The notes under the pieces are model-generated. The model was not told where the DNA came from. It did no database searches and saw nothing but the letters and a program-made list of their open reading frames with translations. Positions 18,701 through 21,700 of a DNA stretch of 64,000 nucleotides are shown here, piece by piece. Within the stretch, counting starts at the first letter, position 1. Every line of letters begins with the position of its first letter. Made by a program: the position numbers and the translations under genes. This DNA is from Paraspadella gotoi (lineage: Eukaryota > Animalia > Chaetognatha), in NCBI GenBank assembly GCA_051294375.1, contig CM119264.1:15649473-15713472 (forward strand), in the 5' to 3' direction.

Positions 18701-21700
18701 AAAATGGACAAAAATGGACATGATTTTTTTTTCATAAATGTAGAAAAAATTGTACTTTTTTATCATTAGAAACAGGTGGAGATGATTTTAACTAATCTTT
18801 AGTTCGGCCCGATTTGTATTGCGGTACAAAATAAATTAATATTGTAAGTAACAACTGAACAATATTGGAAAAAGTTTTTTTACTAAATTCGCCGTTTGTA
18901 AGCGGAACCTTTTACTTTAAATAAAAATTTAACCAAAATGGACGACTTCACTTTCCCATGATCAATTGATCATATCATATCAAAATAACAAAATAAAATG
19001 TTATGGTGGACTATAATCCACAAATCGTTCATCAGCGGCTTTGGTGCCGGAAGCAAGTCATTCGCCTTCCAACCCAAAGTCGGGGTTCGAGCCCGGTGGT
19101 CGTCTGGCAGTTAAGAGGGACGGGCGCTTAACCCGCCTGTAAATGGTGTTACAGCCTGATCCAAGCTCAGGACTGCTTATATTGAACGGTTCTATCACTA
19201 ACTCATAACAATATTACTGTCTGCTTCATTTTGGAGCCCGATTTCCGAACACAAACAGCAACAACAACACTTTCAGGTGCATGCCCTCAACTGGCGATGC
19301 ACTTCGCCCACAACATCAGCGACATCTCAATTGGTGACGAACTTCCACCACAACAACAATTCACTGAAGGACTCAACAGACTTCTCCTATGGGAGGGGGG
19401 GATGTATGGTGGACTATAATCCACAAATCGTTTCATCAGCGGCATTGGTGCGGGGCAAGTCATTCGCCTCCCAACCCAAAGGTCCCGGGGTTCTTAGCCC
19501 GGTGGTCGTCTGCAGTTAAGAGGGACGGGGCGCTTACCCGCCTGTAAATGGTGTTACAGCCTGATCCGAAGCTCAGGGAACTGCTTATATTGATAACGGT
19601 TCTATCACTAACTCATAACAATAATTACTGTCTCTTCAATGTAAAGAAAAATTTTGAAAACCCTTCAGACACTTTTCCAACGTATTCCGAAATTGAACGT
19701 CATTTGTTGAACAGGAACATACCTCAGTCACATTTATATCGTTTTCAAGGAAAAAAATCCCTCTCATTTCTATATAAAATCAGAGATAGAAAATTTTTAC
19801 GTCTAGAAGCAGTATTTGTTCTGGCTTGTTTGATATCAAGATGTTGATGTTTTGACAAGAGAAAAAAATGCAAGCCCTTCAGATACAACAGGATCGGAAT
19901 CAAGTGTTTTTACATCGATTTTTTACCGGAATTTTTCCCAGGAACGTTTATATTATTTGGTAGTCAGATTTGAACGAAAATCTCCATTGAAAATATCTTC
20001 CTCGATCTCTAAGAAGGACGTCGGCTCCTAGTAATACTAATTATATAGGAAAGTTACCTGGTCGTTTATAATGTTATTTTTAATATTTGTACATTTACTG
20101 ATAGGATATGATGTCAATATTATTGATGCAACATTTCATATCAATCAATCCGCGCATTTAAAAATAATCTACAAGAAATGGTCATTTTCCACGCCCAATT
20201 TTTAAAACAAATCTGCGTTCGTTAAATTTTTTTTTGGCTCCTAAATTTTTTGCTTCAGCCGATTGACTTAATTGATAATAAAAAAATCTTAAAAGCATAA
20301 GGATTGTCGCAATCGCATAAGAAAAATCTGGATTGACGACAATTTTTAATACTAAAAAAAATAAAAATATAAACAAAGAAAAATTATAGTTTGCGATTGC
20401 CAATTAAAAAAAAAAGTACCGAGGAAAATTAAAATTACACTTTCTGAAAAAAATTTATTTTTTATTTTTTTGTCATTGTCAATTGTCATTGTCAAATAAA
20501 CTGATCAGCAGATGCAGCCCTTGAAAAAAAAATTCGAAAAAAGAAAATTAATTTATAAACAGAAAGAAAAATTCTATTTTGCGATTGTCAATTAAAAAAA
20601 ATAATAAAGTACCAAAGAAAATTAAAGTTACAGTTTCTAAAAAAAAAAAATTGTTATTGTCTAAAAATAAACTGATCAGCAGACGCAGTCCCTAAGAAAA
20701 AAAACGAAATAAAAACCCCATGTTGCGATAGCAAAATGATAACATGCACGAATGCGATGCCTAATTTTACGAGTTCAATCCTAATTCGATTTTTTGTAAT
20801 AAAAACGCAGAGAGAGAGAGAAAAAAAAGAAATCAAAAGGCAACAGCAGAAGCAGCAGGAAAAAAGAGAAAAAGAAAGAGCCCCTGCAGAGCCAGCTGCA
20901 GATTCGTTTTTTTTTTCGATGAATCAGCACTGGGGAAAGAGAGAGAGCTACATATAATTAAAAGAGAAAAGAGAGAAAGAAACATAAAAGAGAGAAAATT
21001 TGTTTGTTTTGATAAAACATAAATAAAACCAAGATAGACGCTCACCTTACCGCCAGAACCTCTCTCTCCCCCGGGCCTTCTCTTCCCCCTCTCAACGCCT
21101 CCTCCTCCCGTCGTCGTCCCCTCCTCTTCATCCCCGGAGTCACGGATAGAGTCTTGGAGAACGGACTCAGACTCTCTCAACTTCTCCTCTCGGTCTTGGG
21201 GTCTGCGAACCTTCCCTCTCCCTTCTCTCCCTTTTATGTACCCTTATTCCCTTTGTTATAGCTACTTACTTATTACCAATATATTCCTTACCCTACTGAC
21301 CTCTTTTCCCTGATGAAATACTAGTTAGAACCTACCTTTAGCTAGATACCCATCTTCCCAGAAAACATATTTAATAACTGTCCTGACCCAATTTTAAGCA
21401 CATCGATGATGAGAAGCTGTATATAAATTTTCAGCTTCATACACCAATTTAATCATAAAAAAGAAAAAAAGAATAAATATAAAGAAAGAATAGAAAGGAA
21501 AGAAAAAATAGAAAGAAAAGAAAGAATAGAAAGGAAAGAAAGAATAGAAAGGAAAGAAAGAATAGAAAGGAAAGAAAGAATAGAAAGGAAAGAAAGAATA
21601 GAAAGGAAAGAAAGAATAGAAAGGAAGGAAAGAATAGAAAGAAAGGAAAGAAAGAAAAGAAAGAATATAAAGAATAAAACGGAAAGAAAGAATAAAAAGG

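Follow-up and report, generated by a model that had tools for sequence, protein, structure and literature searches.

Introduction

TRIMs with a tRNA-derived head and a 4-bp target-site duplication (TSD) have already been published as Helenus (Helenus/TRIMp3; Kojima 2024, PMC10886601), and the element considered here, family B, is of this kind. Its likeness to the elements described in the accessible portion of that paper takes in a length under 1 kb, boxes A and B within the LTR with GGTTC kept and no working tRNA, a primer-binding site (PBS) along with a polypurine tract (PPT), a probable 4-bp TSD like that of animal Helenus, several families per genome and many LTRs that lack an internal part. 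Family B differs in carrying a twister motif behind the head, whereas that portion of the text names no Helenus ribozyme, and it also differs in its host: in a quickly built tree with 40 rows, the host DDX42 exon grouped with three proteins (support 100) and nested in none of the sampled molluscs, arthropods or deuterostomes. In the supplement of the same paper two wasp sequences, Helenus-2_SyJa-LTR and Helenus-2_SyUm-LTR, show by eye a type III hammerhead-like motif behind the tRNA head, which the accessible main text does not mention. A ribozyme placed there is thus perhaps no unique feature, and ribozyme-bearing Helenus may be a wider group.

The plant LTR retrozymes, as set out in the accessible parts of two reports (Cervera et al. 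2016, PMC4918200; PMC7761336), share with family B a non-coding body, a self-cleaving ribozyme in each LTR (predicted in family B), a PBS and a PPT, as well as a 4-bp TSD and solo LTRs (both probable in family B), a proposed Gypsy helper and a ribozyme held in a blocked fold. They are unlike it in using a type III hammerhead rather than a twister, in a tRNA-Met PBS, in a unit of about 700 nt against the approximately 410 nt predicted for family B, and in having no reported tRNA-type promoter where family B has a tRNA-like head; their circles have been demonstrated and are highly paired, whereas that of family B is predicted. Animal retrozymes are described in those parts as having no LTR, PBS or PPT, and the portion of a 2026 preprint available to us still treats LTR retrozymes as elements that carry a hammerhead and are found chiefly in plants (10.64898/2026.07.22.740005). 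Family B probably resembles an LTR retrozyme in its working but is without the hammerhead that defines those elements.

Three further systems bear on the ribozyme itself, each compared through the accessible part of its source. Like the type-P5 twister (RF02684; PMC5408937), the motif has the order P2-T1-P1-UAA-P2-GC-P3-P4-L4, the catalytic G and A, two pseudoknots and a closing P5; it is unlike it in that P1 is a self-complementary stretch of 5-8 nt unable to fold back, in the 3-nt P2 strand of family B and its sister family C, and in scores under the gathering threshold. The dimeric minimal hammerheads of Penelope-like elements (PMC6765202) similarly have a short palindromic helix that forces dimer cleavage in terminal repeats, but these are hammerheads in Penelope elements and not a twister in a true LTR. 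Twister variants of Schistosoma Perere-3 (PMC8501958) are also retrotransposon-borne, but belong to a non-LTR element, of which they occupy the 5' end. A search of the full-text literature found no description of a twister in an LTR element; most subscription journals and the Repbase reports were outside its scope, and the large twister supplements could hold unlabelled cases.

Structure and insertion of the element

Within the window, by which we mean the whole stretch of 64,000 nucleotides analysed, the family B TRIM occupies 18999-19638 on the plus strand (640 bp) and is bounded by two LTRs that start with TG and end with CA.

18999..19228, plus strand: 5' LTR (TG...CA), 230 bp
19229..19402, plus strand: internal region, non-coding, 174 bp
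19391..19402, plus strand: PPT GGGAGGGGGGGA, adjoining the 3' LTR
19403..19638, plus strand: 3' LTR (TG...CA), 236 bp
19639..19642, plus strand: right TSD, ATGT; the left copy (18998-19001) overlaps the LTR start
16561..16564, minus strand: single ATGT at the empty site, inside the inverted paralogue (16164-16646) of the host repeat

An initial annotation, made from the sequence, had called a TRIM at 19002..19638. The TG...CA LTRs, the PPT and the empty paralogous site bear out that this is a real element; its end was placed correctly and its true start is 3 nt earlier, at 18999. The inverted paralogue of the host repeat aligned with both flanks of the element (84% and 86%) and joins them across one ATGT, so the element is an insertion. 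The empty site that had been pointed out near 16560 was therefore upheld, with its single ATGT, but a clean left TSD was not: the left ATGT overlaps the TGT of the LTR by 3 nt, so that the 4-bp TSD is not clean in the window copy. Clean 4-bp TSDs were seen in two sister families, GTAC/GTAC around a family A solo LTR and TATT/TATT around family C. Family B is a non-coding TRIM of less than 1000 bp with two LTRs, as in the definition of Helenus, and a 105-amino-acid frame that spans its internal region had no Pfam match above the cut-off.

The direct repeats (19002-19228 and 19405-19638) were 90.8% identical (E 2e-81), and the two LTRs differed by 4 substitutions and 18 gap columns. Because these differences are mostly gaps, the copy in the window looks noisily assembled, with single letters doubtful, and LTR divergence is useless for dating the insertion. 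Other copies were read from sequencing runs X1, X2, X4 and X6-X9, all of which consist of contigs, so depth in them is not copy number; X9 is taken as RNA only by guess. The family is abundant and stands at many insertion sites, as 98 X1 contigs extended beyond the end of the LTR into flanks that differ from one another (agreement 0.39). Only 3 X1 contigs covered the PBS, which, set against the 98 leaving the LTR end, suggests many solo LTRs or diverged interiors. A joint in X9 from 19638 to 19254 was considered as a circle or tandem array and rejected as a mapping effect of the two LTRs.

Sister families and a shared primer-binding site

Three further families were recognized in the window, families A and C being taken as the intervals given here.

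32016..32722, plus strand: family A element with truncated 3' LTR; PBS at 32275; G45 of its twister motifs at 32153 and 32630
51436-51694, plus strand: family A solo LTR, clean GTAC on both sides
14300..14970, plus strand: family C element; PBS at 14562; G45 of its twister motif at 14837; TSD TATT
7894-8386, minus strand: family D, a fourth and decayed TRIM; PBS TGGTGAGCCC; 3' LTR interrupted by an N gap as well as by an inverted duplicate
19230..19242, plus strand: PBS of family B; TGGTGAGCCC in other copies, the window copy differing at 19231-19233

Nucleotides of the twister motifs (G45, for example) are numbered as in the rice twister. The internal start and part of the LTR of family D matched family A (0 of 500 shuffles scored as high). 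The family A element lies inside a copy of a repeat that has an uninterrupted paralogue at 45577-46149, and nested long inverted repeats occur at 45425-49004 and 31637-33052, up to 495 bp at 97%.

Family B had been credited with a PBS, and so a primer tRNA, of its own. This did not hold. The sequence TGGAGCCCGA, at 19232-19241, is peculiar to the window copy: the T at 19231 was found in no contig of six runs (X7 having no cover there), G stood at 19231 in all covering depth (X1, X2, X6, X9, X4 and X8), and at 19231-19233 the reading was GGT in 12 of the 14 contigs with cover there (X1, counted once, 2/3, X2 3/3, X6 1/1, X9 2/2, X4 3/4, X8 1/1). Most contigs of the six runs consequently read TGGTGAGCCC, as do families A, C and D, and a TGG-led PBS that in family B starts 1 nt after the LTR is common to all four families. 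Within the window TGGTGAGCCC occurs exactly three times, each time directly behind an LTR (14562 in C, 32275 in A and 8074-8083 on the minus strand in D); in the accessible part of the PMC10886601 supplement it had no occurrence, although line breaks could hide one. Counted by eye, the letters of an X9 contig after the LTR end were identical to family A at 20 of 23 positions from the PBS on. Among tRNAs with a 3' end matching the PBS, 23 of 34 were tRNA-Lys, which, as these come from viral contigs and not from the host, is a lead only. A CGAACAC-like motif lies 12 nt behind the PBS start in families A, B and D (19243-19254, 32285-32297 and 8062-8073); by pairing with the tRNA T-loop it could provide a two-part primer contact.

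The tRNA-derived head

Each LTR of family B carries a tRNA-derived head, in which boxes A and B can be placed.

19035..19103, plus strand: head of the 5' LTR; box A at about 19042-19053, box B at 19084-19094; no tRNA gene
19439..19509, plus strand: head of the 3' LTR; anticodon position occupied by CCC, variable region of 5 nt

The heads are more like tRNAs than chance allows, as had been claimed: against non-host tRNAs the best scores were 59 (3' LTR) and 49.5, and the maxima of the shuffle nulls were 49 and 43.5. A parent of the tRNA-Gly(CCC) type, which had also been claimed, fared badly. The best matches of the 3' head among 92 unique tRNAs from the fetched loci were Val(CAC) at 59 and Trp at 57; three Gly tRNAs, all non-host, were in this Val-rich set, and the Gly scores of the two heads (32-41; for the 3' head 41 and 36 against a null mean of 34.7, sd 4.3) all fell within the null. 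A head pattern built on the anticodon and variable arms with the anticodon left free gave 87 matches in 85 viral loci, 74 of them Val and none Gly, although its wildcards had been placed with tRNA-Val in mind, and a Gly pattern built from the motifs of the initial annotation hit none of the viral loci. As the tests were biased to Val and included three Gly tRNAs, none from the host, a Gly parent is unsupported rather than ruled out. CCC does stand at the anticodon position. ARAGORN found no tRNA gene in the window, and the family B element had no Rfam tRNA match at E up to 10.

The head as first described is moreover a composite of two noisy LTRs. Its letters are present but not in any single head, GCATTGGTG (19442) and CATTCGCCTCCCA (19461) being found only in the 3' LTR and GGGTTCGAGCCCGG (19083) only in the 5' LTR. 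GGTTC is present in the box B of the window copy, and its box A deviates from TRGCY. For other copies the loose-end consensus of 79 X1 contigs gives GCGGCCATTGGTG, and in most of them box B is GGTTCT, which is off consensus, with T at 19089 in 422,636 of 427,115 of the X1 depth. Since these copies read GCGGCCATTGGTG and mostly GGTTCT, the Gly likeness of the head is much reduced.

One explanation for family B is that it captured a tRNA-Gly independently, with a primer of its own, and is unrelated to A and C. The CCC at the anticodon position would fit, as would the LTR alignments: no alignment of the family B LTR to that of A, C or D was better than chance (with 308, 65 and 397 of the 500 shuffles, respectively, scoring as high), in agreement with the expectation that the families would not align end to end. 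Against this, the other family B copies have the same PBS and the 20 of 23 identity to family A from there on, the same type of twister lies at the same place, and Gly scores are at chance. We regard such a capture as very improbable, and in the form with its own primer it is largely refuted by the PBS result. Of the two origins put forward earlier, independent capture or deep divergence, the latter fits better. The PBS region and the order of parts, a head followed by a twister motif 35-39 nt after box B, are common to A, B and C, from which it is likely, on sequence grounds, that the three are old branches of one lineage; a swap of tRNA heads inside this lineage is possible.

A twister-like motif in the LTRs

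Behind each head lies a type-P5 twister-like motif, and one further motif was found elsewhere in the window.

19107..19176, plus strand: type-P5 twister-like motif of the 5' LTR; cut predicted at 19129/19130; a base lacking from loop L4; 0 of 5000 shuffles
19512..19584, plus strand: type-P5 twister-like motif of the 3' LTR; cut predicted at 19535/19536; an A lacking from UAA; 0 of 5000 shuffles
42970-43033, minus strand: isolated type-P5 twister motif; Rfam E 0.018, 30.6 bits; P1 AGGCCT; compensatory changes in both pseudoknots

The isolated motif has by eye no adjoining tRNA head or LTR. A strict type-P5 descriptor, written after the motifs had been seen, matched two window sites, one in an LTR of family A and the other in an LTR of family C, and had no match in 60 shuffled windows. 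Allowing one defect gave six sites, namely both family B LTRs, two family A LTRs, the 3' LTR of family C and the isolated motif (matched at 42979-43021), over a background of 0.275 per shuffled window and of 0 in 5000 shuffles of each family B LTR. The motif starts 35 nt after box B in family B, 38 nt in A and 39 nt in C. Both family B LTRs hold the conserved core bases, P2, P4 and the pseudoknots T1 and T2, with one defect each, and the defects differ: the L4 base in the 5' LTR and an A of UAA in the 3' LTR. Other copies supply both. An extra G after 19162 was read by 38 X1 and 49 X4 contigs (about half of the depth), and UAA is restored as TTAACCC in 40 X1 contigs (agreement 0.95).

Pairing is kept where sequence is not. 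As read from the descriptor output for four kinds of motif, T1 is maintained by double changes (GAGGA/TTCC in C, GACGG/TCCG in A and B, GATGG/TCCA in the isolated motif), T2 goes from GC/GC to AC/GT, and P3, P4 and P5 vary in sequence among the kinds while their pairing stays; in a MAFFT alignment family A was not in register with B and C. The RF02684 gathering score of 37.6 bits was reached by no motif; twister was the best Rfam match in family A (E 0.24) and family C (E 0.043, 19.3 bits), and in family B the 5' LTR scored 9.7 bits (E 5.6) in another register and the 3' LTR had no twister match. No hammerhead was among the Rfam matches at E up to 10. Outside the window, the family B twister motif was found in none of the viral loci, and blastn of the family B LTRs gave no match in the 85 loci.

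Another possibility is that the twister of family B is a dead relic from a common ancestor, perhaps active in family A only, and that B spreads or has spread as a plain Helenus. Both LTRs of the window copy are defective, Rfam does not support the family B motif, the 5' strand of P2 is just three bases long (as in family C), and the second, conserved A of UAA is absent from some copies (X2 loose-end consensus). However, the common reading of the other copies gives the full catalytic set and all helices, and the P3, P4 and P5 sequences specific to family B are still paired. We consider decay of this sort improbable. Published tests, in the part of the preprint available, found imperfect P1 and P2 to be tolerated by twister (bioRxiv 10.1101/2024.07.11.603121).

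Palindromic P1 and predicted dimer folding

In all four kinds of motif P1 is self-complementary (TGCCGGTA, GGCGCT, CGGCCG and AGGCCT), a property of 4% of the 6-mers in these elements. There is no intramolecular P1 stem; in family B P1 is a self-complementary stretch of 5-6 nt that pairs only between two copies. As monomers, all five motifs folded preferred a structure that blocks the core, by 3.4-11.3 kcal/mol. As unconstrained homodimers, three of four (A, the 3' motif of B and the isolated motif) gave a twister-compatible fold with P1 between the strands, and family C did not, nor did the defective 5' copy of B. With random P1 sequences, compatible dimers numbered 20 (A), 32 (B 3'), 0 (C) and 16 (isolated) per 200. 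When whole transcripts were folded, the expected pairs between the two P1 stretches were 4.0 in family A and 0.0 in the window copy of family B. These models are suggestive of a twister that dimerizes through P1. P1 is dispensable in vitro, according to the accessible part of PMC5408937, and on that ground a dimer is perhaps unneeded.

A proposed replication cycle

We propose, with slightly better than even confidence, that family B, which has a tRNA-like head and a predicted twister in each LTR, replicates much as plant LTR retrozymes do, by way of an RNA of about 410 nt that cuts itself free and is then circularized and copied by Gypsy machinery. To judge from boxes A and B, transcription by Pol III would start at the head of the 5' LTR. 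The twisters of both LTRs would then cut at U-A, at 19129/30 and 19535/36, which are 406 nt apart, probably, as the folding indicates, as a strand-swapped dimer through the self-complementary P1 stretches. The product would have no terminal repeat and, on the retrozyme model, would need to be ligated into a circle. Priming would take place at the PBS common to families A, B, C and D, for which a host tRNA ending in GGGCUCA-CCA is a candidate, and a Gypsy-type helper would copy the circle and supply the integrase that leaves 4-bp TSDs. No LTR-retrotransposon protein was found in the 20 frames scanned of the window's 58 long frames.

The principal alternative is that family B is an ordinary Helenus using the linear route. 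Uncut Pol III RNA would run from the 5' head past the 3' LTR and be reverse transcribed by way of a long R region, the twister would cut only part of the RNA, to make 3' ends or to limit expression, and no circles would form. The terminal repeat of such RNA would measure about 190 nt, and beyond the element no T4 run occurs before 19652; scarcity of sense-strand T4 runs (Pol III terminators) was not significant in any family (P 0.35-0.99). The core-blocking monomer folds are in keeping with this route, most Helenus families seem to be free of ribozymes (the accessible text of PMC10886601 mentions none), and the predicted circle shows no excess of structure over its shuffles (z +0.17), a result that also disfavours a close likeness to retrozyme circles. 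On the other side, the motif is in both LTRs, so that efficient cutting would strip the terminal repeat from the RNA, and the tertiary pairs and palindromic P1 have been kept across families that can no longer be aligned. We rate the linear route as rather unlikely, and the retrozyme-like cycle remains the one we propose.

Perhaps, and this we put forward tentatively as a conjecture in which we place less than even confidence, the families together represent an animal lineage of LTR retrozymes with a tRNA-derived Pol III promoter. Its RNA would stay uncut until the twisters of its two LTRs came together in a strand-swapped dimer, which would serve as a check that the unit is full, and the product would be a circle primed by one host tRNA; the lineage would be old enough to have split into families whose LTRs can no longer be aligned.

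Genomic setting and significance

The gene for the DDX42 helicase, with six or more exon blocks, covers 15593-33571 on the minus strand. Its introns contain elements A and B, both antisense to the gene, an orientation in which their predicted twisters would spare the pre-mRNA; the only sense-oriented element piece in the gene, 32719-32866, is truncated before the cut site, and the cases are too few to test. A frameshifted remnant of a Tc1/mariner transposase (PF01498, PF13358) lies at 41557-42185 on the plus strand.

The interesting part of family B is the LTR that bears a twister; the Gly head and the different primer, on which attention had first been fixed, mostly fail. Had family B captured its tRNA independently and adopted a new primer, that would have been ordinary Helenus diversity. 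If the proposed cycle is true, it would bring together in an animal two strategies so far described apart, the Pol III promoter of Helenus and the ribozyme and circle cycle known from plant retrozymes, with another ribozyme in place of theirs, and twister ribozymes would gain a second defined function in retrotransposition. It would also provide a natural dimeric twister, which could be tested with two short transcripts, and a hint at how a Pol III TRIM defines the ends of its RNA.
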